Shown here one piece after another: positions 9,136-63,905 of a stretch of 64,000 bases of DNA. A program made the translations under genes and the position numbers. Position 1 is the stretch's first letter. Each line of letters starts with the position of its first letter. The stretch comes from Nemertoderma westbladi (lineage: Eukaryota; Animalia; Xenacoelomorpha). Location: contig JAUCBJ010007345.1 of NCBI GenBank assembly GCA_032718475.1, forward strand, positions 1-64,000, in the 5' to 3' direction. The notes below the pieces were generated by a model that saw only the letters and a list, made by a program, of their open reading frames with translations, made no database searches and was not told the origin of the DNA.

Positions 9136-10039
9136 TTTTTCCAAGTTGCTATAAGTTACTCTAGGTTGCCGGATGTTTTGGACAATTTGGTCAGCAACTA
9201 TCAACTTAATTTGAGCAACATTAACTTTTAGTCTCTGTTATATGAGGCATCTTTAACAGCAACAAAATTCGCGTTTACATAGAGCAACTTGATCGGCAAC
9301 CTGAAATGCTTACTAAGTTGCTGATAGAGTTGCTCAAAATGTTGCCATGTACTGTAGAAAAAACAGGTCTTTAATTATTCGTCATGACGTACTGTAAGTG
9401 AACTTTACTTTAACGTAGCTGTAACCCTGTAGCTAGACTTTGTTCTTACTGTAGAGAGAGTACCACCCGTGGCTATATTATGTACTTAGAGTTCCGCTTT
9501 CTTGAATCTAAATTTTGTTCTTATAGTTCTGCGTTTGGCTACATTTTGTTCAATTTGTATTGATACATGATTCTAACTACAGTCCCGTACTTATTTTAGA
9601 AGCAATTTATACAAAAATATCAAAAACTTATGGAGCCCTTTAGAATTTTGAATTCAAAAATTTCCAACATGTGTGCAAGTGTGTTAAGCTATATTGTATG
9701 TAATTATTTGTTATTATTGCGTTTACAGGTAATACTAACACCTGATCATGTGCTAGTTAACATGTTAGAACGCACTTATTAGCTAATAACAAATACGCAC
9801 ATGTATTACGTGCGCACTACGCACTAAATTATTAAGGGTGTAATATTATGGGTTTGTTCAGAAGTGGAAAAAATGGGAGCGCGTCACCGGGGGTTGAACC
9901 AGCGCTATACGCATATAGAATTATATTCCCTAAATGCCGTGGATTTTCAAAATTTTATTTTATTCGAATTAACTTTGTAAAGATTGCTTTGAGTTCTCAT
10001 TAGTATTGGTTCTATCTATTGTGTATCTATCGGTCAAGT

Positions 10040-10126
10040 GGTTCAGTAGCTCAGTTGGTAGAGCGTTGGAAATTATATGTGTAGTAGGTATCGAGTTCGA
10101 ATCCTAATAAGTGCGAATTATTTTTT
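10040..10126 (+). ncRNA. tRNA-derived Pol III-type unit (A box, B box, T6) in the LTR; identical copy at 24748-24834
   Basis: TAGCTCAGTTGGTAGAGC (A box with intact D-arm) at 10047, GAGTTCGAATCC (B box) at 10093-10104, TTTTTT at 10121-10126. Anticodon and acceptor stems do not pair. Confidence 0.7.
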
Positions 10127-10179
10127 GTGCAGAATTTCAACTCATTTAAATTAACCGCTACAAATTAATTGCATTTGTC

Positions 10180-10470
10180 TGTACCAATGAGACCGTAGTT
10201 ATTTGATTGTAACCAATGTTGTGTAAGTTATATATTAGCTGGACCAATAAGCTATCTTTAAAACCTTGTTAGAATCTATAGAACAATCGAGAATTTTCTC
10301 GATTGATTGCGGCACAAATTTGGTATAAAAAGGTGCGATTTCGTTCATTAATCTAATCTACTTTAGTTCACTTACTACTACTTTAGTATACATTATCTTA
10401 TCAATATTCTGTCGTGCTTAGTTTATTCTCAGATTACATTGTATTATAATTGTATCTTCTGTAATAAAGT
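10180..10470 (+). promoter_or_regulatory. Putative LTR Pol II promoter and polyA signal
   Basis: Three CCAAT boxes (~10184, ~10212, ~10244), TATAAAA at 10324, Inr-like ttagtt ~10363 and AATAAA at 10463. Confidence 0.55.
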
Positions 10471-12657
10471 CAGAATATTCTCTCAGCTTTTCTGTTTTAC
10501 TATGGTTTCACTACGGTGAACAAACTCGGGGACAGGATGGCCAGCTAGAGATCGGGCCGCAGCAATGAACGGGAACATCACGGGAATGTAGACGAGAGAC
10601 AACCCGCAATACCATTTAGAGTTATTCGCCCATCGCCTAAAAGGTTAGACAGCGTTCGATCCTTGCTACCTAAGTGTAAGACCAAAAGATCAAAAGGTAG
10701 ACGTAGTGACACGCTGCAAGCCTAAAATTACATCATAGGGACTGTACTGTCTTGATTCAGGAAAAAACCGCAGTAGACCTTCATATTCCTACGGGGGGAG
10801 AGAGGGAGAGCATAAGCAGATACTAGTACGCAGATAGGACGTAGGCACACCGGTACAAGGCATACACATTGGTTAGGGTGCAGCAAACTGTACGCTTAAC
10901 TCTTGCTAAGTACAGGTGTGTGTGCGACTATTTGCCGTACAACGGTGTCCAGTGCATTAGAACTTGTAGGCTAGGGGGGTTGCTGTGTTTTCACCTGAAT
11001 TGGGATTGTACCGTTCAGGCGGTAGGGCAGTTTACGCTAGGCGCAAAATAAATTGAGGCTATCAGGGATATACTAACATCTACCGTGTCCCCGCCAACGC
11101 CCTAATAGGAAGTTACCTGGACTACCTGGGCGACTAAAATTCTAGATAGGAGCCAGGATAGCTATTAGTACCCGTACGCCTACAGTAGTAAACTAACACA
11201 TCTCTTCTTAGTATCAGGGACCTGGTACCTAAAATTGCCGAATTCTGGGCGTAGTATTAACCTTATGCCTGAATTTGAGTCCTGGAAATACGCAAGAGGG
11301 GAAGGAACCTTATCATTCGTGAGTATTGGACCTACAAGTTATAAAATTAGAATATTCGTAAAATGCACACCGTACCCAGTAATTATATATGTGAAGGAGC
11401 AAAACTGCTTTTGACCGTTCAGAATTAACACGCGCGCGTTAGAAATTATTTACACCTCAAAATATATAAAATTAACTTTCGTCCTTACTGCACTTTGCTC
11501 GCTAGTTAGACATCTCCAAATCTGCTCTATACCTAGCTAGCGTCCCTTTGCCCAACCATATAAATCACACCGCGGCAAAGTATACGAGCCTCTTAGTCCG
11601 TCAGTGAGTCAGCCTGATTTTAGGATTCGCTGCGCGGGATTTTGTTTTATCGAAGTTTGTCTGCTCGTAGACTGTTTTCTGCCTCACCGGTTAAAAGAGA
11701 TCGATACTGCAATATATTCGCTTACTTAGGGTTTACTGTTTTGGTGAGAAGGTCGGATTTATGATTTGATTTACAAACTTTACAGTAGGATATTGCAGGT
11801 ATTGTTACCGTCTCTTCCGATAGTAGGAATAGGCGTATCTCTCCAATTTAGTAGGAATATGTTTTACTGAACTACGGTTCGGTAGGACTAAAGTTATTTG
11901 AAAATTTTGTATTTTGAGGTAAAATTTATATTTGATTAGCTAAGTGCTAATTTTTTGGAATAAAATTTGATTTGAACCGCGTGTAAAATATTTTGGAATT
12001 GAATACCGGTGTTTAAAAGGGTTTAAATACCATATTGTACCGGTACAAAATTTTCGTAAAAGTAAAACCTAACTCTTTTGTTTTTTCAGGATTCAGAACT
12101 CATTTCTAGGCTGTAACGGGAGCAAGACCGTGTTTAGCAAGTTTGGGAGATAGATAACTCAACAACTTTGGTTGAGAAAATCGCGTTTCGTCCGCAACGC
12201 TGGAAACGGAAAGGTTCACGTTCGGTTTGTATCTGGGAATCTGTTTTTCTGGAGAATTATTGGAGTGGGTGAGTTCGAAAAGTTGCATAAATAAGTTAGG
12301 CATTACCGTATTAGTTAAAATTATTGTGGGTTCCACTGTCTCAAGTATTTATGCATTCCGTATGATTTCTTTGTTCATTGCTGAATTAGTCCGTATTATT
12401 GTATTTAATTTACCTTTTGATAACGCATATCGTTATCCGATTTATTTGTTATAAAATTGGCCGCTAGGCTAATTTTATTATATACTTATTCCGTGACATT
12501 CATTTGCTGTAAAATTGGCCGTTTAGGCTAATTTTATCCATCTGCTATAAAATCGGCCGGTAGGCTAATTTTATATGACTGTAATTAGTACCGTTTTATA
12601 CAAATACGGTAAACTTGATACTTTGACACTCACTTTACTTGACTTACAACTACCGAA

Positions 12658-15600
12658 ATGAGTGACAAACAAGACTATACGAAGAATACACAAACCGACT
12701 ATGACTCATGTGACGCGGATAAGTCAGCAGCGGAAGAACCACAGGGGAAGACTCGCGAGCCTACCGAACCTACACCGTGTGCGTCACCAGTACATCCAAC
12801 GGGAGTACCGGATGCCGTAGTACGAGGCGACGGCAGGACCGAGGACTTTCTAACTGTTCCGCAACCTAGATACAGGGAAACGGAAATGGTAAGTTCAGCA
12901 GGAAGCACAGAAAGTGTGGTTAGAAGCGTCGGTGGATACATGGCGCATATAACCAGGAGTATTGGAGAAGGCCAACGCATATTAGATGGGTTGACCGCTC
13001 CGATGTCTCGATTCGAGTTCTACACCCTCCAGGTTAGAGTACAGAGTAAAGTATATAAGTCCGTAGATAATCTAGTTGGCCTACAAGATCTAGCCAGACA
13101 GAGACAGGACATGGATACTCAACTTAGAATCCTCGAGAAACTAATGATCACTAGAGAGAAACTGATTCAGTTTAAGTCGACGATTAGACAGATACAACAG
13201 GAACAAGCGGACCAGTTGTTAGGTGAGTCAGTTTCGGACGAATTATTACAACCCGAGGAAGAACAGGAACTGTACCGACTGGATGGACAATTGGAACACC
13301 TGACGGACCACTTACGCATGTGCGGCGAAGACGTCGGCGATTTGGAAACCGTGCCGGAATACACGAGGGAAACTTCATTTGCACAAATCGAATCGGCACC
13401 GGGAATACTAAATCAATCATTGGTAAGTATTCGTAGCGAAATCTGCGAAGGAAGTATAGTCACGTCAGAAGTTGCTCGACAACAGCAGCAGTTCTACAGA
13501 CAGCAACACGAGATGGAAGAACAAACTCAACTGCTAATGATACAAACAGCAGTAGAGGAAGAGAAAATACGTGTTGCGAATGTAGCGAGAATCTCTCATC
13601 TGCAGGAACAAGCCGAACTCGAAGCGGCCGAAATGGAAAGGTTAGAGTTGGACATTGCCCAACAAGCGGCAGCGACCGAGTTAGCGCAACGAACGGCAAC
13701 AGCCGAGTTAGAGCGACAAACGGCAGCGGCAGCGGCCGAGTTAGAGCGACAAACGGCTGCGGCAGAGTTAGAGCGACAAACGGCTGCGGCAGAGTTAGAG
13801 CGACAAAGATTAGTTTCGGAAGCCAGAGTCGAGATGAAGACACGGCAAATAAAAGCCCAACAAGCGATACGACAAGCAGAGTTCGAGGCGCAACAACAAC
13901 AAACGGAACAACGAGAAAAGGAAGTTAAACTTCGTTTCGAACTTGAAAAAAGGGCGAGAGAATTAGCCGAAACCAAGGAAAATCTGGATCTTCTAGCCCG
14001 CGACCGATCGATGAGATCTCGTGACGGACATGATTTGGACCAGTTAGAGGTAAGACATCGCCAAATTCAGGAACGGAAGAAGGAAGGAAGCGTAGGAGCA
14101 CCCAGACGGGAACGACAATTAGTAAAAGACGTGTGTCAACGATTCCCACAGGTAACTCATATGTTTGCACCGGTTACGACTAAGGAACCTGTTTCGATTG
14201 CGGGTAGTAGTGATATTTCTCCTATCCATGGTGCGACGGAACACAGGTTTGTTATTCCGGACGAGTTTATACCGCCAAGAGCAGCGTCGTCGCCTATTCC
14301 GAGAGTCAAGGTAAGTAACCCACCGATTACAGATCGTAGTAGTTTATTGACCGGACCTGCGCTACTGACGACAAAACAGGTGAGTCCACCTTTGACACCT
14401 AAACCCGTTACACATTACGCTTACCCAATGACGTTTCGACCTACAAGGCCAGCGGTTTCAAATGCTGTCATCCGACCACCGGTCCAGTTTACATCGCAAT
14501 CTACGACTTCGAGGAAGACTTGTGAGCCTACCGAACAACGGAGAACAGTGGATACGCGACCGTTTAACCAGTTCACATCGCAATCTACGACTTCGAGGAA
14601 GACTTGTGAGCCTACCGAACAACGGAGAACAGTGGATACGCGACCGTTTAACCAGTTCACATCGCAATCTACGACTTCGAGGAAGACTTGTGAGCCTACC
14701 GAACAACGGAGAACAGTGGATACGCGACCGTTTAACCAGTTCACATCGCAATCTACGACTTCGAGGAAGACTTGTGAGCCTACCGAACAACGGAGATCAG
14801 TGGACGATGTTCCGAAACGAGCCGTTAGAATTCGAACGACGCAACGGACGCGAGCATGTCGACCACCATATCCAGATGATAGTAGTACTTCGAGCGAATC
14901 GGATTACCCGAAACGCGAGGTATTTAGAACAGGGGCGGCCGATGAATATAAACGCGAGCGTTCAGACAACTCCTTTGCAGACAATCCTCCACAGAATACA
15001 CCAACACAGAAGGCGTTACAACCAACGGACGCAATTAGTACACAACAGTTCGCCGACATTCTGCGACCAGTTGTCAACAAGTTGGCTCAGATCGAGGAGC
15101 GTCTGGAGGAAGTTCAAACCGATAGTTCGAGGAACACCGAATTCGAACACAATAGACACCCGAAAGCACCACAAAGATCGGTACCTTCAAACCCCACATC
15201 GTATCAGGGAAAAGCGCCTAGAAGGGAGAACATCAACCAGGTTACCAACCAAGGACGCGAAACTCTGAACGTTGCCGAGGAGATAGCGAAATTCGCAGCC
15301 AGACAGGGATTGCCGGTACAACAACCACCGAAGTTCTCCGGTAGCTCAAAACACTGGCATACCTTCGTAGACTATATTGAATCCCAGATCGCCGTGTGCG
15401 CCTTTACATCACGAGAGAAGTTCAATTACTTGCTCCAAACGTTGTCAGGAGAACCTAAACGTTTGGCGGAGACTTTCGTCGGTGTACCAGACGCTTTCGA
15501 ACTAGCGTACGATCGTTTGACTTCGATATACGGAGGTACAGTGAGTATGGCCAGGTCAGTAATAGAAGAACTCTGTAAGGGAGGGGCTATCACTAAACCC

Positions 15601-18600
15601 GTCGACTTACTAAAACTAGCTGACGAAATCAAGAACGCTATCACTACCTTAAGATCAATTGGACAACTTGATTACGGGAATACCCCTACAGTCCTATTAA
15701 AGATAATAGGACGACTCCACCATCGACTTCGTCGGGAGTGGAGGAAGGTCGAATACCAGCGAGAGGAGCGAGGAGGATTCCTGAAATTAGAAGATGTGTA
15801 CCTTTTAATATCCAGGGAGGCGGTAGTAGAAACTCGATCTAACTATACCGACCAGCACATCGTGGCAGAAGGAATCACACTGCCATCCTCCAACCGACAA
15901 AAACCCCAGACAACATCCACAAAGACGGCCACACCGACGGAATCACGACAATTCTCAGACAGTAATAGAGTATCTGCGCCCATTGGGACGAAACAGACGA
16001 GACAGCAACTCAGCGCCGACTTCAACGGCTGCCAATACTGCGAACATTTAGGTAAGCGGTATATTGGTCACAAGTTACGAGGTTGTCGACAATTTCGCGA
16101 GTTGAACTCAGAAGAACGACGGCTGCAGATACGGCCACTGGACTCTTGTTGGCGGTGTACGCGACACGGACACGTCCGTAAGGATTGCCCAAATACCGAC
16201 ACTTGTCCATCCTGTGGACGCAACCACGACGGTCTGCTCCACACAGACAGCCACACGCCGACGAAACGCTTCGCCAGGGAACACCCGGAAGCAGCAGCGA
16301 GATGTGATGCGGCTTACCAAAAACGAGAATCGAAAACGACTCCGACTTTCGTGACCCATATAGAGGATTGCTTTTCAGAACAATCCGGATCGTCGGACGA
16401 AGAATCAGACGACGACGAATATTCTAATGGAGACGAACAACCGTCAATCGCGCTCCTGACCACTGACCAACTGAAGGGATTCAGTGTAATCCCGATTAAA
16501 GTTACTGGCACAAAAGGGAGTAAGAGGATTTACGCGATTCTAGACTCAGCCTCATCTCACAGTTACGTGGATGAAAAGATAGCTGACGTCGTAACGGATC
16601 TCAGACAAGGTAAACACGTAAGTTATACAGTAAGTAGTATGCACGGCCAGCGTGCAATACCAGTGACACGAGTTAAGTTGGACTTAGACTCTCTTCTTCC
16701 AAAATCGCAACACAGCGAGAGGGAGAGGTCTTTGTTGCCCTTTAGAGATCTAACCTTTGCGGCCACGAAGGACTTTAGTAACCTACTAGGTCCAGTGCCG
16801 GAACAATCTCTGGAGGACCGTAAGTATTTCAGACACCTTGGTGTACCCGAATGTCCTGTCAATTATAGATCGGTAGCAATGCTGATCGGGACGGACCAAT
16901 TCAACTTACATCAGGTGTGGGAAACCAGACCGTCGGCAGTTGTAGCAGGAAACGCATACGCCTGCAGAACGCCGATAGGGTGGTATACTCGAGCGCCTGT
17001 GCGCACACTAGACGTAAGTGACGAGGAAGACGATGTACAGAGTACATGTAGTTTATTAACTACAAATTCAATTCATTCCTTTTCACACGACGTGAACCAT
17101 ACTACACTACAGTCGACAAAACATCACAGACGTGTAACTAGTATGATAAGTCACAAGGAGCAGCTAACCCACAAGGTGAGTTTAGAAATTGGGGGGAAGA
17201 CGAGTCAGCTAGAGATTCCATCGACGACAGATGATAGGCTTGCGAGTCTACCTACCCCAATAACCTCAACAGTGCCCGTCGATATCGACGATGACGCGTT
17301 GAAAATTCATCAGTTGGAACAAGCCGTCTTGGACAAAGAATTAACGGAGAAGACTATCAGGTGGTTAGAACAAGATACAGCTGAACCTGGTAGCTACGAA
17401 CCTTGTATGTCGGAACAGGAGAAACAATCTCTGAAGATCATGGAGGATACTATCCGACAGACGGAGGACGGACATTACGAGGTGGGTATGTTATGGCGTA
17501 GCCAAAGTCCTAAACTTATAAACAACTACCCACTGGCTTTAAGACGTCTACACTCAATACGGCAACGTCTATTAAAGGACGAGAAAGCCCATCTGCAGTA
17601 CAACACTCAGATGGAGACGTATTTGACGAAGGGATACGCTATCCGAATGACTAACCCGGAGCGAGTGACCGACCAAACGTATTACTTGCCACATCACTAC
17701 GTGAGACACCCCGATAAACCAGACAAAGTACGTGTAGTCAATGACTGTGCGGCTCTGTTTGAGGGAATGTCCCTAAATAGTGAGTTGATGGATGGACCGA
17801 ACATGAATAATTATCTTATGGGGGTGATTATGCGCTTCCGTCAGCGTCAAGTAGCCTTTACTTGCGACGTTGAAGCGATGTTTCACCAAGTAAAAGCGTT
17901 AGAGCGAGACAGAGACAGTTTGCGGTTTCTCTGGTATCCGGAAGGGGACTTAAGTCTACCACCAGCGACTTACCAAATGCAAGTTCGCGTTTTCGGTGCC
18001 AGAGACAGCCCGAATTGTACGATGTACGCCTTGAAGCAAGCCGCTAGAGATCAGAAACATCTGTATGACCCAGAGATAATTAGAATTGTAGAACGTGACT
18101 TTTACGTTGATGACGGTTTACAAAGTTGCGACACAGTAGAACGTGCTACAACAGTAGCACATCAATTACGGGACTGCTTGGCGAGCGGAGGTTTTAACCT
18201 CACCAAATTCGCCTCAAACAGTGCCGAATTAGTTGACTCATTCGGAACTACCGAGCGTGGAGGAGGTGATATAGACCTAGAGTTCGAACCACTACCGACG
18301 ACTAAGGTGTTGGGGCTCTTTTGGGACCCAAACACAGACAACTTTCGAGTGAAGGTGAGACTGGACAGTCAAGGGAACACGCTGACCAAGAGATCATGCT
18401 TGTCAAAATTGAGCCGATTGTTCGATCCGTTAGGATTCATCAGTCCAGTGATACTGCAAGCCCGCATTTATATGCGCAGTATATGGAAGGATGGACTAAC
18501 ATGGGATGAGCCGATCTCATCAGATCAAGTGGACTTATGGAAGACCTGGGAGGCGGAATTGTCTTCGTTAGAGGATTATTCCATACCCAGGGTTTACTTT

Positions 18601-21471
18601 CCATTACAGAGTACATTTCCTGACAACTTGGAACTACACTGTTTTTCCGACGCCAGTGACAACGGGTTTGGTGTGGCAGCGTATTTGCGCAGACAAGTAG
18701 AATCAGACGAGTTCGATGTTTCGCTCATTACTTCTAAGGCTAAGACCATGCCTACTAAGTATATGACGACACCACGAGCCGAGCTACAAGCCGCGACCCT
18801 GTCAACCACCATCGTGAACCTCATACAGACAGAACTACAGTCGAGTTTACAGATATTTTATTGGACTGACGCGACGTTGGTTTTATTTTACATAAACAAC
18901 GACACACTCGAATTCAAGACATTCGTAGCCAACCGTCGCGCAGAGATTCTAGACCGTTCGATAAAAGAGGATTGGCGACATTGTCCCGGACCACAAAACC
19001 CAGCTGATATTGCGTCGCGAGGAATGATGCCTGAGGAATTCTGTAAACCGGAGAACAAAGAGTTTTGGCAACACGGACCCCAGTTCTTGCAGAAATCGAC
19101 ACAAGATTGGCCTCCGTTATACGACAACAAGTCCAACACCATTCCTAAGGACGCCGAAATCAAGAAACCAAAAAAGGGGAAGACAAAGAAAAGGACGACA
19201 GCGACAAAACTCAAGAAAAAACCGAAGGCGAAATGGAAGGATATAACTTCAAAGGTCAAGAGAGGAAGACTTGCGAGCCTTTCTACACCAGACATATCGC
19301 CAGACGGTCAACCAGACACGTTACCAGACGATCAACCAGATACGTTACTAGACAGTCAACCAGGCATTCTACTAGACGTTAGTAATGTACTGACAAACAG
19401 TAAAGCCGCAGTTTCCCTAGTGGAGCGGCCTTCTATTGACAAACAACCAGATACGTTACCAGACGTATCGCCAGACACATTACAAGACAGTCGACTAGAC
19501 ACTAGTAATGTATTGACTAACAATAAAGCCGCAGTTTCCCTATTGGAGCGGCCTTGTATTGACAAACTACCAATTTTGACACACTTGAGCAACCATAAGC
19601 ACGGTGAAACCTCATGTATTACAGATGTGGGTAGTACCTACGCTAATGTAAATACAGGTGTTACTTTGCGCTCAAGAGACATACCGAACCTACAACCTAC
19701 GGTGAGACCTGGGATTAATGTCGGCAGAAAATTAAGTTTACCAAAACCTGCTGACCCTATAGAGTTCAAACCACCACTAGCGATCGACTTACAAAGTACC
19801 GACAATCAAGGTAAGAAGACAAAGAAGGACAAATTACTTGTAGACCCGGACGGATCAACAGTCAACAAGGGAATACTTACCGGCGGACCCGTGGGCCCTT
19901 CTAGTAATTCAAAACCTTCCAAGTTCTCCATTGACTTACCTGATGACGTCACAAATACTTATGTCGACCGTATTGTAAACTTAACAGATTCTTGGACAAA
20001 CGCTTGCCGAAAATTAGCGTGGATTGTACGTTTTGTACAATACGTTAAAGGCAAACGTGACTTCACACGTCGACTTACATTGGCTGAGATTGACAGGTGT
20101 GAGATTAAATTAATTCGCCATTACCAACTGAGATATTTCGCGCGCGAATTCACATCTATAAATCAAGGTCAACCAATCAAGTCGTCACCGATACTGAGTT
20201 GGAGTCCGATTATTTATAATGGCTTAATTTGTCATAAATCTCGGCTTCAAAACATTGACTTTAACACGAACTTTAGGTACCCAATAATAATACCGCAACA
20301 TCACGAACTACAACGTGCAATGATACTGGACGCACATTTACATCTGAAACACGCTGGAAGACACCACTGTCTTTCCTACTTACGTACTAGATTTGTATTA
20401 ATTAGACCCAGTAAAGCATTAAGTTCAGTGACACGTACGTGTATTATTTGTAAAAAGGTACATTCTAGAATAGGTACCCAAGAAATGAGTGAACTACCAC
20501 AAGCACGACTTCAAGCATTCAGACCACCTTTTACAGAGACTGGAATTGATTGCTTTGGTCCCATACATACTAAACGTGGACGTATACTAGTAAAACGCTG
20601 GGGACTGATTTTCACATGTATGTCCAGTAGGGCAGTTCACATTGAACGTGTGATGGATCTTTCCACCAACGCGTTTATACTAGCACTGCGGCGATTTATC
20701 GCTAGACGCGGACTAGTAAAATGCTTGTACTCAGACCAAGGGACAAACTTTGTTGGTGCTCGGAATGAGATTGCTAGAGCCTTTAAGAGATTAGATCATG
20801 ATCAAATCTCGAACGAACTGCAACCTCACAAGATTGTTTGGAAGTTTAATCCTCCAGATAGTCCTTGGAGAGGCGGAGTCTGGGAGAGATTGATTAGATC
20901 TATCAAAACGGCCATGGCAAAGGTCATTCCAGTAAACCACATATTAACAGACGACCAACTGACAACATTGTTTGTTGAAATCGAGGCAATACTAAATACT
21001 AGACCAATAGTATTAGTACCCGATGACAAACAATCTCAGTTCGCTTTAACACCAGCACACCTGCTTATGCAGGCACCGACCACATTGACGCCGATTTCCA
21101 TTCCAATGGAAAGCGATAGTTACGGGAGAAAAGCGTGGAAAATCACGCAACTACTGGCTAACAAATTCTGGGAAATATGGCAAAACCATTATTTGCCCTC
21201 TATTTCTGCCAGAACAAACTGGTACAATAATACCCGCGCATTAAAGCCGGGAGATCACGTGCTGTTGGCAGAAGTGAATCTAAAAAGATGCTTCTGGATA
21301 ACAGGTGTCATTTTAGCCACACATCCATCTATGGATGGAGTGACAAGAACTGTGACGGTACGGACAATTGACGGTCGTACAGTAGACAGACCGACTCAAC
21401 GTCTCGTACTTCTTGAAGAGACTCGTAACGAGTCTGGAGACTACAAATCTCCACCTAATACTAGTAAATAA
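12658..21471 (+). CDS. BEL/Pao gag-pol polyprotein (2937 aa)
   Basis: Coiled-coil N-terminus; gag PPKFSG; three Cys/His knuckles (e.g. CWRCTRHGHVRKDC, CPSCGRNHDGLLH); protease ILDSASS; RT YYLPHH and FYVDDG; RNase H FSDAS, RAELQAA, YWTDA, NPADIASRG; integrase HHCC, GIDCFGP, YSDQGTNF, GVWERLI. Confidence 0.97.
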   Translation: MSDKQDYTKNTQTDYDSCDADKSAAEEPQGKTREPTEPTPCASPVHPTGVPDAVVRGDGRTEDFLTVPQPRYRETEMVSSAGSTESVVRSVGGYMAHITRSIGEGQRILDGLTAPMSRFEFYTLQVRVQSKVYKSVDNLVGLQDLARQRQDMDTQLRILEKLMITREKLIQFKSTIRQIQQEQADQLLGESVSDELLQPEEEQELYRLDGQLEHLTDHLRMCGEDVGDLETVPEYTRETSFAQIESAPGILNQSLVSIRSEICEGSIVTSEVARQQQQFYRQQHEMEEQTQLLMIQTAVEEEKIRVANVARISHLQEQAELEAAEMERLELDIAQQAAATELAQRTATAELERQTAAAAAELERQTAAAELERQTAAAELERQRLVSEARVEMKTRQIKAQQAIRQAEFEAQQQQTEQREKEVKLRFELEKRARELAETKENLDLLARDRSMRSRDGHDLDQLEVRHRQIQERKKEGSVGAPRRERQLVKDVCQRFPQVTHMFAPVTTKEPVSIAGSSDISPIHGATEHRFVIPDEFIPPRAASSPIPRVKVSNPPITDRSSLLTGPALLTTKQVSPPLTPKPVTHYAYPMTFRPTRPAVSNAVIRPPVQFTSQSTTSRKTCEPTEQRRTVDTRPFNQFTSQSTTSRKTCEPTEQRRTVDTRPFNQFTSQSTTSRKTCEPTEQRRTVDTRPFNQFTSQSTTSRKTCEPTEQRRSVDDVPKRAVRIRTTQRTRACRPPYPDDSSTSSESDYPKREVFRTGAADEYKRERSDNSFADNPPQNTPTQKALQPTDAISTQQFADILRPVVNKLAQIEERLEEVQTDSSRNTEFEHNRHPKAPQRSVPSNPTSYQGKAPRRENINQVTNQGRETLNVAEEIAKFAARQGLPVQQPPKFSGSSKHWHTFVDYIESQIAVCAFTSREKFNYLLQTLSGEPKRLAETFVGVPDAFELAYDRLTSIYGGTVSMARSVIEELCKGGAITKPVDLLKLADEIKNAITTLRSIGQLDYGNTPTVLLKIIGRLHHRLRREWRKVEYQREERGGFLKLEDVYLLISREAVVETRSNYTDQHIVAEGITLPSSNRQKPQTTSTKTATPTESRQFSDSNRVSAPIGTKQTRQQLSADFNGCQYCEHLGKRYIGHKLRGCRQFRELNSEERRLQIRPLDSCWRCTRHGHVRKDCPNTDTCPSCGRNHDGLLHTDSHTPTKRFAREHPEAAARCDAAYQKRESKTTPTFVTHIEDCFSEQSGSSDEESDDDEYSNGDEQPSIALLTTDQLKGFSVIPIKVTGTKGSKRIYAILDSASSHSYVDEKIADVVTDLRQGKHVSYTVSSMHGQRAIPVTRVKLDLDSLLPKSQHSERERSLLPFRDLTFAATKDFSNLLGPVPEQSLEDRKYFRHLGVPECPVNYRSVAMLIGTDQFNLHQVWETRPSAVVAGNAYACRTPIGWYTRAPVRTLDVSDEEDDVQSTCSLLTTNSIHSFSHDVNHTTLQSTKHHRRVTSMISHKEQLTHKVSLEIGGKTSQLEIPSTTDDRLASLPTPITSTVPVDIDDDALKIHQLEQAVLDKELTEKTIRWLEQDTAEPGSYEPCMSEQEKQSLKIMEDTIRQTEDGHYEVGMLWRSQSPKLINNYPLALRRLHSIRQRLLKDEKAHLQYNTQMETYLTKGYAIRMTNPERVTDQTYYLPHHYVRHPDKPDKVRVVNDCAALFEGMSLNSELMDGPNMNNYLMGVIMRFRQRQVAFTCDVEAMFHQVKALERDRDSLRFLWYPEGDLSLPPATYQMQVRVFGARDSPNCTMYALKQAARDQKHLYDPEIIRIVERDFYVDDGLQSCDTVERATTVAHQLRDCLASGGFNLTKFASNSAELVDSFGTTERGGGDIDLEFEPLPTTKVLGLFWDPNTDNFRVKVRLDSQGNTLTKRSCLSKLSRLFDPLGFISPVILQARIYMRSIWKDGLTWDEPISSDQVDLWKTWEAELSSLEDYSIPRVYFPLQSTFPDNLELHCFSDASDNGFGVAAYLRRQVESDEFDVSLITSKAKTMPTKYMTTPRAELQAATLSTTIVNLIQTELQSSLQIFYWTDATLVLFYINNDTLEFKTFVANRRAEILDRSIKEDWRHCPGPQNPADIASRGMMPEEFCKPENKEFWQHGPQFLQKSTQDWPPLYDNKSNTIPKDAEIKKPKKGKTKKRTTATKLKKKPKAKWKDITSKVKRGRLASLSTPDISPDGQPDTLPDDQPDTLLDSQPGILLDVSNVLTNSKAAVSLVERPSIDKQPDTLPDVSPDTLQDSRLDTSNVLTNNKAAVSLLERPCIDKLPILTHLSNHKHGETSCITDVGSTYANVNTGVTLRSRDIPNLQPTVRPGINVGRKLSLPKPADPIEFKPPLAIDLQSTDNQGKKTKKDKLLVDPDGSTVNKGILTGGPVGPSSNSKPSKFSIDLPDDVTNTYVDRIVNLTDSWTNACRKLAWIVRFVQYVKGKRDFTRRLTLAEIDRCEIKLIRHYQLRYFAREFTSINQGQPIKSSPILSWSPIIYNGLICHKSRLQNIDFNTNFRYPIIIPQHHELQRAMILDAHLHLKHAGRHHCLSYLRTRFVLIRPSKALSSVTRTCIICKKVHSRIGTQEMSELPQARLQAFRPPFTETGIDCFGPIHTKRGRILVKRWGLIFTCMSSRAVHIERVMDLSTNAFILALRRFIARRGLVKCLYSDQGTNFVGARNEIARAFKRLDHDQISNELQPHKIVWKFNPPDSPWRGGVWERLIRSIKTAMAKVIPVNHILTDDQLTTLFVEIEAILNTRPIVLVPDDKQSQFALTPAHLLMQAPTTLTPISIPMESDSYGRKAWKITQLLANKFWEIWQNHYLPSISARTNWYNNTRALKPGDHVLLAEVNLKRCFWITGVILATHPSMDGVTRTVTVRTIDGRTVDRPTQRLVLLEETRNESGDYKSPPNTSK
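14485..14800 (+). repeat. 84-bp in-frame tandem repeat (28 aa, ~4 copies) within gag
   Basis: QFTSQSTTSRKTCEPTEQRRTVDTRPFN repeated; the units are nearly identical at DNA level. Confidence 0.95.
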
Positions 21472-22318
21472 TTAGGAGTTTACAAATAGATTTCCACGTA
21501 CCTGTACACCGTAGTAAGGACAGCGGTAGAATTCCATTGTCTTTATATGTGAACATTGAGGGTGGTACCCTTATGTGTCACATAGGAGCGGGATTTGTAG
21601 GTATAAGAAATGGAATTCTACTTGGAACTCACAATATTGAGACATTTTCGAAATTTTAGACAATCCATTTGGATTTGAAAAATTTTTAAAATTTTCTCCA
21701 GTGAATAGATTTCAGGGTACAGTCGGGTGGAACTTAAAATTAGAGAAACAAGAGAGGAAGACTTGCGAGCCTTTCTTAAAATTTTAATTAAATTTTACAC
21801 GGTCTTGTTTCAATAAGTTACGTCAAAATAGACTCCCCTATATTTATTACTAACTCTTGACTGCTTATTTTCTGATAATAGTTTGGGATCAAAAGGTGAG
21901 TATTTTAGACTCACGGCCAGTTTAGCCCAAATTCGTTTTACTTCGGCAAAAAATTTTAGATAAGAAGCAGCGTGTCATTAAAGAAACCCTAGATCTTAGG
22001 CTATGGGTAGGAGGTTAGAGCGTTGTCGAAGCCCAAAAGGCAGACGAAACTCTCACGTCTCCTCACAACTAACCACAAACTCTGTTGTATTCCCTCTAGT
22101 AGTAATGATTATGTAACTACACCTCTAATTATGGAGAAAGGGATACAAGGAGAGCCGAGATGGGGATATGATATCCAAGAGGAAGCGGCAGCTTCATTCG
22201 AACGATTTGGAGCAAAAGACTACACTATATTTGGTATAAAGGAATTATCAGAAAGTACAGCGAAGCTCGCAAAGACAGTAATGCCTTTACTCGAGCAGGA
22301 TTTAGCATATTTCGAGAC

Positions 22319-23833
22319 GTGTATCTTCGCTGTGCGGGATCTCTTATCGAAAGACCATCTATGTTTACATTGTTACCCTATGAAGGAGAACGTATCGTGG
22401 AAATTACGGATGAATCACGGCAGACGCGCGCGCCTATCGGTCACCTTGGTGATGAATTCGAAGTAACTACTACGATCGCCGACGATCCTTTAGAGGAACT
22501 TCTTGAGATAGAAAGGAACCTCCCGAAGAAATCTCAGACGGAGATTCGACAACTTGAAGCAACAGATGCTATAGTTTGTATACAACCTTCAGAAACCTAC
22601 CAACCCATAGACCCAGATGATTACGATTATAGTATGGGAGGAAGCGCTCGACCGATTGGAGATCTTATATACGAACGAGTGTGGTACCCTGCTAATACGA
22701 TGTGTAGTAAATGTGGCGTCGCTGGACATCATATGGCAAAGTGCAGTGGAAAGCACATTACTACGACTCAGCTAATCTGTGGATGGTGTGGGGATCAAGG
22801 GTCTCATACCTTTTATACTTGCTGGAGATTTATGGCTCAATGTACTTACTGCAATATAAAGGGACATCGAGCATCTGAATGCCAACTAAGGGACATACCT
22901 TATGAACACGAATCTGTAAAACTCGTGAGGAAATTATTTGATGAGTGGGAAGATTTAGCCGACGAACATGTATCGGCACAGAGAAGACGGTTTCCGATGA
23001 GAGCGCATCTCGGATTTTGGGCGGTAAATCCTCAAACGATGATGTCGGAAGGATATATCTCCGCTATGCCCCAGTATGACGAACTTATCGAGGTTGTCGA
23101 TATTTTGCCCCACGACAGCGGATTTCGAGTAGTGCGCGAATATCTATTACAGATTCACCCAGATAACAAAAACACGTGGAATTTTCAGAAAGTCGTAAAT
23201 CGTATCACGTATGGTGAATTTGATCGTTTCCGAACCGAAAAGCGGAACAAGGGAGCTTGGTTAACCGTCGCATGGGCGTACCGAGCCGCGTTTTACCACA
23301 AACGTATACGAGCGAGCGTATTCGAGGAAGAAGAGGTCCTAGAGGCGACGAATATATCAGCCACTCCGGTTGCGCCGTCTGCACGTCACCCTCGGGAGGA
23401 CGGGCAGGGTAGGATCATACGGGTCCAGAAGGTGGGCCAACAATTGAAGAAAATTATTAATGTAGAAGAACGCAAGGGAGTTGAGCCGACTATTCGAGTT
23501 ACTCGGGATACGGTATCACTTCCAAGAGAACCGGTAGGAGGATCGGGACATACACCAGCTGATCAACAGGGGGCGCAAGCTACTCTTGGGTCTGCGTCGT
23601 CCACTCCTCGCGCGTTCCCAGACGTTCTACCAACTGTAGCGACAACTGATCGGTCACGAGGAATTGGTCGAGGTTTTGGGATGCCAAATAGACGAATTTG
23701 CGAGGAAATAGTTGCACCGTCTCTCAACGTCCCAAGTAAACCAGTGACTCGCCCCATTAGTCCCATATCGCGAGCAAAGTCACCTGTGCGCAGTTTTCGA
23801 GGACGCGGCAGGGCTCGATCTACTAAGCGATAA
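22319..23833 (+). CDS. Extra ORF of the BEL/Pao element: triple CCHC zinc-knuckle protein with Arg/Ser-rich tail (true start uncertain; overlapping upstream ORF 22023-22466)
   Basis: CSKCGVAGHHMAKC, CGWCGDQGSHTFYTC and CTYCNIKGHRASEC; 504 open codons between pol and the 3' LTR; no obvious signal peptide or TM segment. Confidence 0.8.
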   Translation: MYLRCAGSLIERPSMFTLLPYEGERIVEITDESRQTRAPIGHLGDEFEVTTTIADDPLEELLEIERNLPKKSQTEIRQLEATDAIVCIQPSETYQPIDPDDYDYSMGGSARPIGDLIYERVWYPANTMCSKCGVAGHHMAKCSGKHITTTQLICGWCGDQGSHTFYTCWRFMAQCTYCNIKGHRASECQLRDIPYEHESVKLVRKLFDEWEDLADEHVSAQRRRFPMRAHLGFWAVNPQTMMSEGYISAMPQYDELIEVVDILPHDSGFRVVREYLLQIHPDNKNTWNFQKVVNRITYGEFDRFRTEKRNKGAWLTVAWAYRAAFYHKRIRASVFEEEEVLEATNISATPVAPSARHPREDGQGRIIRVQKVGQQLKKIINVEERKGVEPTIRVTRDTVSLPREPVGGSGHTPADQQGAQATLGSASSTPRAFPDVLPTVATTDRSRGIGRGFGMPNRRICEEIVAPSLNVPSKPVTRPISPISRAKSPVRSFRGRGRARSTKR

Positions 23834-24621
23834 AAGGGAGGGCAAGGGTGGACGGAAGACTCGTGGGCCTTTCTTATGATTTGTGATTTATTTTGAATTA
23901 TATGTTTTATATTTAGAAAATTTAGTAAACTTATATTTTATATTTGTGCTTATTTCGAACTTATGCAATTTGTATTGTTCCGAATTTATGAAATTTAGAA
24001 ATAAGAACTCATATTTAGTAAACTTATATTTAGTAAGAATTTATATTTTATATTTACGTGATTATTTCGAACTTATGCAATTTATATTATTCTGAACTTA
24101 TGCAATTTATATTGTTCCGAATATTATGCAATTTATATCTTATAAGCAGTATTTGTATTTACAGTGAAATAGAAAGTTTTATAGATAGAAAATTTGTGCT
24201 CAGAAAGACTCATATTTGTAATTATTCCAAACTTATGCAATCTACATTTAGGTACGAAAGTATTTGTAATTACTTGAATTTATGCAATATTTGGGATGCA
24301 ATAGTAGATGGAAGACTCGCGAGCCTTTCTTATTGTTTTCATTTATTTGTATTTGTAATTACTTGAATGCAATATCTGAGATGCAATAGATTTATATTGG
24401 TGAATTTAATTTAGATTTATATTGTACTTACTTAGTAAAGCCTTAACTACGTAAAGTTTGAATTTGTAATTATTTTGTATCGAATCATTACGTAAAAGGG
24501 AAGTATTGTTTGAAACTTAATTGTAAATATGTAAGTACGCCCTAAGTATTTTATAGTTTGATTGATTATTGGTGAAAACCGTATATTTTATGCACGATAA
24601 TATCCTGTTTTCATGGAGCGG

Positions 24622-27600
24622 TATAGAATTATATTCCCTAAATGCCGTGGATTTTCAAAATTTTATTTTATTCGAATTAACTTTGTAAAGATTGCTTTGA
24701 GTTCTCATTAGTATTGGTTCTATCTATTGTGTATCTATCGGTCAAGTGGTTCAGTAGCTCAGTTGGTAGAGCGTTGGAAATTATATGTGTAGTAGGTATC
24801 GAGTTCGAATCCTAATAAGTGCGAATTATTTTTTGTGCAGAATTTCAACTCATTTAAATTAACCGCTACAAATTAATTGCATTTGTCTGTACCAATGAGA
24901 CCGTAGTTATTTGATTGTAACCAATGTTGTGTAAGTTATATATTAGCTGGACCAATAAGCTATCTTTAAAACCTTGTTAGAATCTATAGAACAATCGAGA
25001 ATTTTCTCGATTGATTGCGGCACAAATTTGGTATAAAAAGGTGCGATTTCGTTCATTAATCTAATCTACTTTAGTTCACTTACTACTACTTTAGTATACA
25101 TTATCTTATCAATATTCTGTCGTGCTTAGTTTATTCTCAGATTACATTGTATTATAATTGTATCTTCTGTAATAAAGTCAGAATATTCTCTCAGCTTTTC
25201 TGTTTTACTATGGTTTCACTACGGTGAACAAACTCGGGGACAGGATGGCCAGCTAGAGATCGGGCCGCAGCAATGAACGGGAACATCACGGGAATGTAGA
25301 CGAGAGACAACCCGCAATACCATTTAGAGTTATTCGCCCATCGCCTGAAAGGTTAGACAGCGTTCGATCCTTGCTACCTAAGTGTAAGACCAAAAGATCA
25401 AAAGGTAGACGTAGTGACACGCTGCAAGCCTAAAATTACATCATAGGGACTGTACTGTCTTGATTCAGGAAAAAACCGCAGTAGACCTTCATATTCCTAC
25501 GGGGGGAGAGAGGGAGAGCATAAGCAGATACTAGTACGCAGATAGGACGTAGGCACACCGGTACAAGGCATACACATTGGTTAGGGTGCAGCAAACTGTA
25601 CGCTTAACTCTTGCTAAGTACAGGTGTGTGTGCGACTATTTGCCGTACAACGGTGTCCAGTGCATTAGAACTTGTAGGCTAGGGGGGTTGCTGTGTTTTC
25701 ACCTGAATTGGGATTGTACCGTTCAGGCGGTAGGGCAGTTTACGCTAGGCGCAAAATAAATTGAGGCTATCAGGGATATACTAACATCTACCGTGTCCCC
25801 GCCAACGCCCTAATAGGAAGTTACCTGGACTACCTGGGCGACTAAAATTCTAGATAGGAGCCAGGATAGCTATTAGTACCCGTACGCCTACAGTAGTAAA
25901 CTAACACATCTCTTCTTAGTATCAGGGACCTGGTACCTAAAATTGCCGAATTCTGGGCGTAGTATTAACCCTATTAGTACCGGGCTATAAAATGTTGTAC
26001 AAATACCGGGAGGGGGTCATATTGACCCCCCCCTCTAAAATCTACAAATATTTACGAAAACGTCTGATTTTTTGTTTGTACGTAGGTATCACTTGTCTGG
26101 ATCCGACCGAAAAAAAAAATTTTCGAAAAAATGTACTGGGGTGGTTATATTGCAGCACCAAAATTACAAGTAGTGCACAATTTTTACCAAATTTGAAAGT
26201 TACATTTTCGGCTAATTATTTTTCAATACAGGTGTTCTGGGGTGCAAAATACATTGGAAAATATTAAAAAATGATATGATTACTATAAATGGCTGTTTAG
26301 TCTTCTCTGCGTAGGAAAAAAATGAAAAAAACAAGTAACCAGCACTTTTCAGTTAGAACACAAAATTTTTAATTCACTTATACGATGCTATAAATTCACA
26401 TTTTTAAATTCACATTCTAATGGAATACATTTCTAATATGCTAGATCATTGCTACTTGTATTTTTCGGCGTAATTTGGCAAATTTTGGTGCTAGCACCAA
26501 ATTTCGTACCCATCGCCAAAAAGTACAAGTTTGCGATGTCCAGTGCTGTTTTTATTGATTCCATCGGATTCAGGACCCTCATAAACACGTATAACACAAG
26601 AAACAAGGTGATACTATCTACTTATAAATTTGCATATTTTCCAAAATTTGGTGCTGGCACAACAATTTTCACCCACCGGCAAAAAATACAAGTTTGAGAA
26701 CTCTTATGAAATTTTTACTGATTCCATTGAATTCAGAACCATCACAAACCCGTATAACGCAAGAAACAAGGTGACACAATCAATTGATATATTTGATGGT
26801 TTTCAAAATTTGGTGCTAGCACCACATTTTTCACCCACATCCGAAAAATACAAGTTTGAGATGTCTAGTTCGATAATTATATTTTCCATTGAATTCAGAA
26901 CAGCCATAAACCTCTAAAACGCAAGAAATAAATTCTCACAAGCAATTTTATCTATTGAATGGATTTTCAAAATTTCGTGCTAGCACCAAAATTTGCACAC
27001 AGCACCGAAAAATACAAGTTTGATACGCTTGGTGCAACTCGTATATATTTCTTCGAATCCAGAATCCTAAAAAACCCCAATTGCGTAAAAAACAAGTTTC
27101 AAACGATCAATTTACCAAATTTACTTATTTCAAAATTTGGTGCTGGCACCAAAATTTGGCACCCACCGAAAAAAACAAGTTTGAAATTTCTAAATCAATT
27201 TATATGAATTCCATCAAATTTCTAACACCAAAAAACCGGTGTAAATCAAAAATAGAGATGTTACAATTCATATTTAATGAAATGTAATTTTCAAAAAACG
27301 TCTCAAAAAAAGTGCCAAAAGTAGGGTTATAAAATGGTGCTATAACTCGAAAAGTACCCAATATTTTTGAAAACGGTTTCCACTACTAGGAAGACAATAG
27401 ATTTTTAGGAAAAGTCATAAAATTTCAGATTCCCAACTGCGTTTGTTTCAGAATTATAATAAAAAAACCACGGGGGGGGTCATATTGACCCTCCCCCGGG
27501 TTTAATAGGGTTAACCTTATGCCTGAATTTGAGTCCTGGAAATACGCAAGAGGGGAAGGAACCTTATCATTCGTGAGTATTGGACCTACAAGTTATAAAA

Positions 27601-28104
27601 TTAGAATATTCGTAAAATGCACACCGTACCCAGTAATTATATATGTGAAGGAGCAAAACTGCTTTTGACCGTTCAGAATTAACACGCGCGCGTTAGAAAT
27701 TATTTACACCTCAAAATATATAAAATTAACTTTCGTCCTTACTGCACTTTGCTCGCTAGTTAGACATCTCCAAATCTGCTCTATACCTAGCTAGCGTCCC
27801 TTTGCCCAACCATATAAATCACACCGCGGCAAAGTATACGAGCCTCTTAGTCCGTCAGTGAGTCAGCCTGATTTTAGGATTCGCTGCGCGGGATTTTGTT
27901 TTATCGAAGTTTGTCTGCTCGTAGACTGTTTTCTGCCTCACCGGTTAAAAGAGATCGATACTGCAATATATTCGCTTACTTAGGGTTTACTGTTTTGGTG
28001 AGAAGGTCGGATTTATGATTTGATTTACAAACTTTACAGTAGGATATTGCAGGTATTGTTACCGTCTCTTCCGATAGTAGGAATAGGCGTATCTCTCCAA
28101 TTTA
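24622..28104 (+). repeat. 3' LTR, interrupted by a piggyBac-type MITE
   Basis: 3483 bp minus the 1542-bp insert minus the 4-bp TTAA duplication equals 1937 bp, matching the 5' LTR. Confidence 0.97.
25969..27510. mobile_element. Non-autonomous piggyBac-type element with internal ~163-bp tandem array
   Basis: TTAA TSD at 25965-25968 and 27511-27514 (single TTAA in the 5' LTR). Ends ccctattagtaccggg / cccgggtttaataggg; subterminal palindromes gggtcatattgaccc; five units with palindrome ttggtgctagcaccaa at ~26485-27150. Confidence 0.93.
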
Positions 28105-28465
28105 ACGCACGTTTCGGCCTAACAGGCCTCATCAGTAGCGGTAACCAGCTCAGCCACTAGCCCCTGACACTCGCAGTCCCACCTAATCCACGCACCTAAT
28201 CCACACCTAATCCCACCTAATCCAATTGCACGGGCAGTCTTAAGTTGCAAATATTCTTTCTCTAACAGCGGACCTAACGGCCTCAAGTATGCTAGAGTGA
28301 AACAGGAGGGAAATACAAATAAATAAATATTCAGCTCGGTATTGCTGCCAGGTGATATTAATTAAATAAATTGGAGATGAGCTGTTGCAACTGTAATTAA
28401 AGGTGTAATATTATGGGTTTGTTCAGAAGTGGAAAAAATGGGAGCGCGTCACCTGGGGTTGAACC

Positions 28466-28511
28466 AGCGCTATACGCACGTTTCGGCCTAACAGGCCTCA
28501 TCAGTAGTGCT
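28466..28511 (-). ncRNA. Minimal type I hammerhead ribozyme (intact copy; the other copy is split at 9901-9913 / 28110-28142)
   Basis: Minus strand reads agcacta CUGAUGA ggccu guu aggcc GAAA cgugc GUA|uagcgcu: conserved core, stem II, very short stem III, stem I. Confidence 0.85.
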
Positions 28512-30003
28512 AACCAGCTCAGCCACTAGCCCCTGACACTCGCAGTCCCACCTAATCCACTTCTATTGAACGGGCAGTCTTAAGTTGCAAATATTCTATA
28601 ATATTACACCTTTAATTACAGTTGCAACAGCTCATCTCCAATTTATTTAATAAATTATTAAGGACGTACGATACACCTTGGGTATTATATGATATATTTT
28701 GCGTGTTTTTTGTAAAAATTTGTACTTATGGTGTTTTGCCAAATTGAGGATACCTTGTTTTCTAGGCAATACCCCGCAACTATCGTATAGTTACGGGATA
28801 ATACCAGAAAACGGTGTTCCCCTATGTTTTGGCAAAACACCATAAGTCAGAATTTTTACAAAAAAACCGCAATATATTTCAAAGGTAATTCTAAATCAAA
28901 TTGAAAGTTTAATTATATGAATTCTATATATATTTAGTTCTATATTCAATATATTCAAAAAACACAATAACAAGTAAACTGAGGCATCTCTCTAAAAAAT
29001 AAACAGTTTTTATTGATTATCTCAGAACTACAAAAATCAACTTAGGGGGTTCTGCCTTGAAGGTGACGACAGATGCAACAACTAAAAAAGGTGAATAAAC
29101 ACCAACTAACGACAGCCACCAATATTACAATTCTATAGTTATTGCTAAGCAACTAGTTGTGGGACGAGCCGTGAAGTGAGTATAAAGTTATTGTATTTAT
29201 AATATTATTTTTAATATGATTATTCTACTTATATGCGAGTAGTAGAGGAAGAGGTGACCCCAGCATAGTCCTCCCTAGCTTGTTCTATGGGCGATATCTC
29301 GGAGGACTATTAAAAATGAGTAGTAGATGCCAAATTCCGGAGCGTTTAATTGGTCCATCTGCCGCCATCAGTATTGATTCGCGTCGTTGCCATCAACCAA
29401 TCGTTGCATATTCACCTACGCGTAGCCTAACCTCGCGATGCCCACCTTACTCGACAGCAGCTGTTACCACCTATCAGTATTGATTCGCGTCGTTGCATCA
29501 ACCAATCGTTGCATATTCATCTTCGCATAGCCTAACCTCACAATGCATGGCTAGCCCCACACATACCCAACCCATCGCTACTCGACTGCTGTTACCTACC
29601 AACCAACCAACTGCGATGCTTGCCTAGCCCACCGGATACTCCCCTTTTCCCCACGCTACCGCATACTGTATACGATGACAATGATAGAGTCAGTCACGGA
29701 CGACATGGCCATCTACGCGCACCACGCATATACCACGCTGTTATATTATATTATATCGATTGCCAACTCATCGATTTACGCAGAACCCAATAATTTTCAA
29801 TTGTACTGTATTTCCCTACCAACTAATCAATCAACAAACCAATAAACCGAATTTAGGCTATTTCTCAGTTTAAGACCTGTATTATTTTTGAAAATATCTT
29901 ATATATATAATCTCTTGCATTAATCACAATTAATCATTTATAATGGTTTTAGTTTAAAAGTTTTTACTTTGTTTGTTTGATTTACAATAAAATAAATTAA
30001 ATA

Positions 30004-53826: not shown

Positions 53827-54488
53827 TGTTAGCGTATTCAATTCCGCTAGCCAGCCCCACAAAGTAGGCTTTAAGCAATATTGGGAGCACGAGGTTGATT
53901 ACCAATCAACCTCGTGTCACCCCAATAAACGGGGACAACAGGCCCCAGGGGAACACACACACAGCTGGGGTCAGAGGTTACACCTCCGGGAGAGAGAGAA
54001 TAACAGCAGTGGAGGGGAAACACTCCCAGAGAGATGGGAGGCGAGAAGTGAGTTATTAGCCAATGGGGGGAAAGCATCGACTGAGTAATGTAATGCAGCC
54101 AACGGTGCAATATATATTATCATTTGTTGCGCCAATTCATTCACTTCAGTAAGTCAGTTAGTTAGGACAGTACCAGAACTCTAATCACCATCTCCACCTA
54201 CTGTCAGCAATATTAAGCCATTTTAGCGGTACACTTCAGAAACATTCACTTTAACTGTGCTATATCTTATCTGATTATATCATACCCTTATGTTTATATA
54301 CATCGATCAATCAACAACCAGAACTCTTTTCACATACACACACGGTGGGGACGCGTAGATTAGACACCGGATAAATCGGGATTCTCGGATCCCGTCACAG
54401 TGATTAGAGCCAACAACTGCCCTGAGTAATTAGATCCGAGCAGCTGCCCTAGTAATTAGAACCCAAACACTAGCTGACAGTCAAAGCA

Positions 54489-62385: not shown

Positions 62386-62712
62386 TCCATTGGCAATAGT
62401 AAGTAGTAGCACAGTAGTAGGATTGAATTAAATTAAAATATTAAAAATAGAATAGGAAATTATAGAAAATTACAAATTATGGTAACAGTAGGAAAATTAT
62501 TCTGGAACATAATTAAAGTAACGGACAAAATTGCAATCTAGGGTACAATTTGGTAGCTTCAGAATTTAAGTAGTAAAATTTAGGCTATAACTCAGAATTA
62601 AGTAAGGGATAGGCCATTGTCGAACTGTACAGACCATCCTAATCTTATCACTCATCTGTACTGCGACTTGGCAAGGCACCACCTTACAGGTGAGCGAGTG
62701 AGAGAGTTCGAA

Positions 62713-63843: not shown

Positions 63844-63905
63844 GAAATCGCTAGACAGGAGAGGAGAGAGGCAGAAGAAAGGGAGGGGGAAGCTAGGGCA
63901 CAGAC

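Follow-up and report, generated by a model that had tools for sequence, protein, structure and literature searches.

A young BEL/Pao element of Nemertoderma westbladi with a primer-binding position complementary to its own LTR and likely priming by its own RNA

The window, i.e., the whole analyzed stretch of 64,000 nt of Nemertoderma westbladi contig JAUCBJ010007345.1, contains a long retroelement flanked by LTRs. The LTR pair was identified by self-comparison of the window, in which the direct repeats 9914-11266/24622-25974 and 11257-11850/27511-28104 belong to one element. The end of the 5' LTR was set by two markers, namely, the 3' copy ending at 28104 and the target-site duplication (TSD) ACGCA. 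The main parts of the element are listed below.

9909..9913, no strand, left target-site duplication ACGCA, 5 bp
9914..11850, + strand, 5' LTR, 1937 bp, starts with TATAG and ends with ATTTA (non-canonical TA..TA termini)
12643..21471, + strand, gag-pol frame, 2942 aa from stop to stop, first Met at 12658
22172..23833, + strand, additional frame of 553 aa, located between pol and the 3' LTR and carrying three CCHC-like knuckles
24615..24621, + strand, short purine-rich tract GGAGCGG abutting the 3' LTR
24622..28104, + strand, 3' LTR, split by an insertion; copy of the candidate primer at 25490-25500
25969..27510, no strand, insertion within the 3' LTR, 1542 bp, non-coding, with terminal inverted repeats, TTAA-flanked
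28105..28109, no strand, right target-site duplication ACGCA, 5 bp

An uninterrupted copy of the target is present at 28396-28560 of the same window. When the 1542-bp insertion is subtracted, the size of the element is ~16.6 kb. The 5' and 3' LTRs differ by one clear substitution (10639), indicating that the insertion of the element is young. The insertion at 25969-27510, which we take to be piggyBac-like, contains a 163-bp tandem array.

The gag-pol frame is intact and carries DUF1759, zinc knuckles, the DSA motif of the protease, RT, an RNase H-type domain, integrase, and DUF5641. Pfam analysis detected PF05380, PF03564, and PF18701, with Integrase_H2C2 below the cut-off. The YVDD motif of RT (aa 1821) and four acidic residues of the RNase H-type domain (D2003/E2047/D2076/D2122), which are presumably its catalytic residues, are also intact. 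The order of domains (PR-RT-RH-IN) is that of BEL/Pao, and the closest proteins are BEL/Pao polyproteins (identity 38–44%), the named ones being from marine invertebrates. Judged by its protein sequence, the element is a member of BEL/Pao (Belpaoviridae). For the 553-aa frame, no convincing family was found by profile and atlas searches (zf-CCHC E = 0.004, below the cut-off; atlas leads all under 0.9).

The element shares the PR-RT-RH-IN order, the PF05380/PF03564/PF18701 set, and a 5-bp TSD with canonical Belpaoviridae (Tas; Achilles). Two LTRs and a TSD are thus present as expected for this family, though the termini are TA..TA rather than TG..CA. According to the ICTV profile, Belpaoviridae have an 18-nt primer-binding site (PBS) to tRNA-Arg or tRNA-Gly, LTRs of 0.2–1.2 kb, and genomes of 4.2–10 kb, and their replication is poorly understood (PMC8742986); a PBS to tRNA-Tyr is given for Achilles in the available portion of PMC4580426. 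Unlike canonical members, the window element has no PBS to a tRNA 3' end, 1.9-kb TA..TA LTRs, a length of ~16.6 kb, and the extra CCHC frame.

Analysis of the 5' LTR border concerned the following sequences.

10782..10792, + strand, candidate self-primer CATATTCCTAC, 3' end ..AC, overlapping the initiator-like TCATATT (10781-10787)
11785..11833, + strand, degenerate tandem PBS copies in U5: GTAGGATATTG at 11785 after ACA and GTAGGAATAGG at 11823 after ATA
11851..11861, + strand, primer-binding position GTAGGAATATG, offset 0 from the LTR end, without TGG

A CCA-ended tRNA primer requires TGG at the PBS. The original prediction had described the PBS as lacking TGG, and indeed no TGG occurs in the 20 nt that follow the 5' LTR. 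It had also pointed to pairing of the PBS with the LTR itself; all its coordinates proved correct, GTAGGAATATG being the exact reverse complement of CATATTCCTAC. The match stops at 11 nt, and its sole other copy in the window is that of the 3' LTR. The 11-mer occurred in 9 of 20,000 dinucleotide shuffles of the LTR. When start positions 11851-24599 were scanned, 17 of 12,749, the PBS itself counted, reached an LTR complement of at least 11 nt. No tRNA gene was detected in the LTR by ARAGORN (0 hits), and Rfam gave no tRNA match.

The segment 11785-11861 consists of three tandem PBS-like copies, the first located behind a canonical ACA and the last, which is the one in use, behind TTA. Since two degenerate copies precede the used one and the first follows ACA, this arrangement suggests that the LTR end slid downstream via duplication, giving the TA terminus. 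A TA 3' terminus is also found in the LTR of one relative (L041). In another part of the LTR (10571-10591), a purine-rich GGGAA stretch is followed by TGTAG at 10587, resembling the PPT/LTR start of relatives; this TGTAG-like start lies 195 nt ahead of the primer site, the equivalent distance in relatives being 104–378. An older LTR start may survive here as a relic, in which case the AT-rich 9914-10510 segment would be a later addition.

Relatives of the element were found using the RT-RNase H alignment, which yielded 79 metagenome loci and 21 genome-bin loci (100 in total). Filtering for loci with both LTR copies (at least 90% identity) whose sequences part at an ACA/ATA terminus, and not at the edge of the contig, left 18. 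L033 was removed as belonging to the same family as L035, and L016 (74% LTR identity) was added by hand, so that the final set comprised 18 relatives. Two loci were excluded, L094 and L099, the latter lacking an ACA end and belonging to the L069 family. The loci L080-L100 are animal-type BEL/Pao contigs inside prokaryote genome bins, most likely as a result of host contamination. No relatives were found in viral contigs (0 among 67 candidate stretches). Identity of RT/RNase H between the relatives and the window element is only 34–44%; the latter has no close sister and sits on a long branch in a quick tree. Co-variation was assessed between families.

The test, run at offsets of 0–5 from the LTR end, allowed the complement either to be contiguous or to bridge a donor..AG joint; in its first version, a GTRAG donor was not demanded. 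Among the relatives with independently fixed LTR ends, 17 of 18 contain a complement of 10–15 nt to their own LTR at an offset of 0–4, written in family-specific letters. When post-LTR sequences were exchanged among the 19 elements, matches of at least 10 nt appeared in 4 of 342 pairs, and two of these four were between sister families with a common PBS. The original prediction had proposed a search for compensatory changes in related families, and such changes were seen between families, in which the letters of the PBS vary and track those of the family's own LTR. The exception was L088 (best match of 8 nt; 10/11 with one mismatch by eye). In L028 and L089, TGG occurs within 8 nt, yet the self-match is also present. 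Eight further families or loci without an independently fixed LTR end, counted after three loci repeating already counted families had been left out, all gave best matches of 10–15 nt (8/8).

The complement is contiguous in three of the 17 self-matching relatives, as in the window element (11 nt), and in 14 it spans a predicted exon-exon joint (L008, L019, L020, L025, L028, L035, L041, L069, L073, L082, L083, L089, L090, and L096). The predicted LTR introns of these families are 76–697 nt long, with GTRAG donors in 11 of 14; two joints are doubtful, namely, that of L090, where the intron measures 697 nt and the LTR start is uncertain, and that of L083, which has a GC donor. Spliced and contiguous primers are unclustered in the quick tree (4 changes; 4.6 in shuffles). 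The distance from the LTR end to the PBS differs between families (0–5 nt), and that from the primer to the LTR end is 44–203 nt in relatives vs. 1058 nt in the window element. In 17 of 18 cases, the paired PBS has a GT that starts at its base 1 or base 2; because of this, the primer would end in AC, as in the window element.

Folding predictions brought two additional helices next to the primer/PBS pair into consideration.

10771..10777, + strand, predicted outer helix, 5' arm, pairs with 11863-11869
10797..10803, + strand, inner helix, 5' arm, GGAGAGA
11838..11844, + strand, inner helix, 3' arm, TCTCTCC
11863..11869, + strand, predicted outer helix, 3' arm

The minimum free energy fold of 10782-11870 pairs the primer with the PBS. 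The probability of this pairing is 0.92–1.0 for transcripts starting at 10680, 10761, and 10783, and at most 0.1 for starts at 10355, 10500, and ~10588 (0.01 for 10355), folds above 1 kb being unreliable; the helix is thus predicted only for starts within 10680-10783. Forcing it in the longest transcript costs just 3.1 kcal/mol.

The inner helix of 7 bp had been described in the original prediction as a continuation of the primer/PBS pairing. Its arms are present and complementary (pair probability ~0.6 in folds from starts 10680-10783; 2.2% of LTR windows pair as well), but its equivalent is not conserved across families (3318 of 20,000 permutations, p = 0.17), which rules it out as a conserved feature. 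The outer helix has a pair probability of ~0.75 for starts at 10750 and 10761 and 0.03 for 10680; it does not reach significance when the window element is taken by itself, since 9.5% of LTR windows equal it. Among families, 20 nt upstream of the primer were compared with 15 nt downstream of the PBS, own vs. swapped (n = 18). Own pairs gave −8.0 and swapped pairs −5.4 kcal/mol (0 of 20,000 permutations), with null results in control windows (6671, 16605, and 5369 of 20,000). In a second, non-blind set of nine, the signal was less pronounced (739 and 50 of 20,000), and one control also scored (717 of 20,000).

The position of the primer relative to R and U5 was assessed using promoter and poly(A) motifs.

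10324..10468, + strand, candidate upstream promoter and poly(A) signal from a motif scan only: TATAAAA at 10324, initiator-like CTAATCT (A at 10355), AATAAA at 10463
11047..11052, + strand, AATAAA downstream of the primer, candidate poly(A) signal (motif scan) of the kind that priming in cis needs

The original prediction had placed the cut at an internal U5 site. Its central idea, tRNA-independent self-priming, is well supported by the family-specific co-variation (17/18 vs. 4/342 in swaps); the U5 wording found no support. In relatives, the poly(A) hexamer (AATAAA/ATTAAA) is located downstream of the primer in 13 of 17 cases and upstream in none of 17. Moreover, in the standard LTR cycle, minus strong-stop DNA formed in cis extends only as far as the cut, which places the cut inside R, upstream of the poly(A) site. 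Taken from these sequence features, the primer is probably 5'-proximal, near the start of R, and not in U5. The initiator-like TCATATT (10781) covers the first bases of the primer, and a start on this motif would make the primer exactly Tf1-like. Conservation of the outer helix across families points instead to a primer some 10–20 nt inside the RNA and not at the cap; unlike that of Tf1, it may carry a short 5' extension of 10–20 nt. A weaker form of the internal cut is therefore retained. Downstream of the primer, at 11559-11600, TATAAAT and an initiator-like TTAGTCC were found, which could yield a primer-less mRNA by analogy with Tf2 (PMC5341516, available portion).

In the proposed scheme, transcription would start at or just upstream of the site (~10755-10783), placing 10782-10792 close to where R begins. 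Folding back of the RNA would let 10782-10792 pair with 11851-11861, and the RNA would be cut after ..AC at 10792, probably by the RNase H of the element, by analogy with Tf1. Synthesis from the resulting 3' OH would begin at LTR base 11850 and run back to 10793, and strand transfer would rely on the part of R that lies between this cut and a poly(A) site around 11047-11075. We consider it likely that the young BEL/Pao element, the PBS of which pairs with its own LTR and not with a tRNA, uses a 5'-proximal fragment of its own RNA to prime reverse transcription.

A literal U5 model would have transcription starting at 10355, polyadenylation after AATAAA 10463, and a cut at a true U5 site. It is consistent with TATAAAA at 10324, located 31 nt before the initiator-like A 10355, and with the U/GU-rich tract after AATAAA 10463, and this set of motifs keeps the model alive at low odds; in a region of 26–39% GC, however, such motifs are expected, the primer/PBS helix is not predicted for the 10355 transcript, and none of the relatives has the corresponding arrangement of the hexamer. 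By the logic of the standard LTR cycle, a U5 cut in cis would leave strong-stop DNA without R and hence without a match to the RNA 3' end, and completion would depend on another, uncut RNA being primed in trans. We regard this model as improbable. Slightly less improbable, though still unlikely, is that the helix exists but has a structural or regulatory role (packaging, dimerisation, translation) and that priming occurs by other means, e.g., by an internal tRNA fragment. Half-tRNA priming exists in Ty1/copia according to the accessible text of PMC6317226, and Belpaoviridae are listed by ICTV as tRNA-primed (PMC8742986); against this stand the PBS letters, which vary by family yet always follow the family's own LTR, the start of the match 0–5 nt from the LTR end, its orientation into U5, and the common AC end. 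A helix occupying the PBS would also exclude any other primer.

Two other explanations have very little probability. A chance inverted repeat might be favored by the length of the LTR (1937 bp) and by the 17 of 12,749 element positions that reach 11 nt; the position was, however, fixed in advance, and the shuffles (9/20,000) argue against chance. Recurrence of the pattern in relatives, set against the swaps, rules it out at the group level. Equally improbable is a tRNA-like primer encoded by the LTR, for which C. elegans Cer7 is reportedly a precedent. A stretch that could speak for it is the following.

10047..10104, + strand, tRNA-like A box (10047-10058) and B box (10093-10104) in the LTR, as read from the sequence

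This A/B-box-like stretch contains no PBS complement, the LTR's sole complement being 10782-10792, and the T6 run at 10121-10126 would stop a Pol III transcript long before that site; together with the negative ARAGORN and Rfam results, this largely refutes such a primer. As a feature in its own right, 10047-10126 resembles the head of a tRNA or SINE, with A and B boxes followed by T6.

Self-priming has been described in other superfamilies. The primer of Tf1 consists of the RNA's initial 11 bases, and RNase H cuts after base 11 (PMC7175516); the priming fold is a three-duplex pretzel (PMC10085805), its flanking duplexes involving LTR sequence downstream of the primer. Tj1 has been proposed to self-prime like Tf1 (PMC4600332), and for Tf2 a self-primer in R has been described (PMC5341516). 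Self-priming was also predicted for TAR/Houba/Osr-1 (Ty1/copia) and Tcn1 (Ty3/gypsy) using an LTR complement of at least 10 nt starting 0–5 nt past the 5' LTR (PMC6317226). All these statements refer to the available portions of the sources. As far as these portions describe them, the window element resembles Tf1/Tf2, Tj1, and the Tf1/sushi group in that ~11 nt of its own RNA can pair with the PBS right after the 5' LTR, without a tRNA, in the orientation that extends into U5, and it agrees with TAR/Houba/Osr-1 and Tcn1 in the same predictive signature. Phylogenetically, it does not belong to Tf1/sushi (Ty3/gypsy chromoviruses): its protein places it in Belpaoviridae, i.e., in another superfamily than Tf1. 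It is Tf1-like by sequence signature but outside Tf1/sushi.

Additional differences concern the BEL/Pao set as a whole. Unlike in Tf1, the additional conserved helix involves sequence on the upstream side of the primer, and no conservation was seen for the inner helix. Unlike in the Tf1 group, most primers (14/17 relatives) lie over a predicted splice joint and the offsets from the LTR end range from 0 to 5. TAR/Houba/Osr-1 and Tcn1 are plant and fungal elements of other superfamilies, and the available part of PMC6317226 mentions no intron-split primer for them. No paper describing self-priming in BEL/Pao was found in the literature searched, most subscription papers, Repbase reports, and supplements lying outside the search and some sources being covered in part. 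The words 'PBS' and 'tRNA' are absent from the main text of the BEL/Pao papers PMC3118150, PMC554778, PMC6238403, and PMC8556966, and the accessible parts of PMC3601003 and PMC13524379 do not report BEL/Pao self-priming.

A broader reading is offered tentatively, at somewhat less than an even chance. In a broad marine-invertebrate branch of BEL/Pao, tRNA priming may have been replaced by a third, independent form of self-priming, in which the leader would be mostly splice-assembled, paired with the PBS, clamped by the outer helix, and cut after a conserved AC. As part of this reading, the primer fragment in most families would be a capped leader assembled by host splicing across the LTR intron. 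The window element would then be a descendant without the intron; its PBS, freed from the need to match a tRNA, would have moved downstream through tandem duplication, so that the LTR end was redefined (TA for CA).

Should self-priming prove to be the norm across much of Belpaoviridae, the mechanism would exist in all three LTR superfamilies. It would explain the non-TGG PBS, which defeats tRNA-based annotation, and self-primed elements would presumably escape silencing by 3' tRNA fragments. Primers over splice joints in relatives would couple host splicing to the initiation of reverse transcription. The claim can be tested directly, since it predicts exact positions for the cut (10792/10793) and for the RNA-DNA junction (11850).

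A second, very distant BEL/Pao element with an analogous complement was found in the same window.

54179..54409, + strand, GTGATTAGAG (54400-54409, preceded by GTCACA) with its complement at 54179-54188; neither the start nor the end of the LTR fixed independently

Its self-complement of 10 nt is written in other letters than that of the first element; the chance of such a match was 32 of 1000 shuffles and 3 of 1000 if a GT start was required. This element (53827-64000) is very divergent, with pol in several frames. Upstream of its primer site are a TATA-like motif (54111) and, at a distance of ~40 nt from that site, a TCATTC initiator (54137); GTCACA ends at 54399.

Other features of the window include a TTAA-flanked non-coding element with terminal inverted repeats (~52470-52965, piggyBac-like) and a 224-aa frame (30933-31607, + strand) with weak matches to P-loop/Pox_A32 ATPases (E about 0.001–0.003, below the cut-off), which can serve as a lead for a putative Polinton-like remnant. 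In addition, a 570-aa frame (44229-45941, + strand) without a Pfam match contains 21-nt coding repeats.
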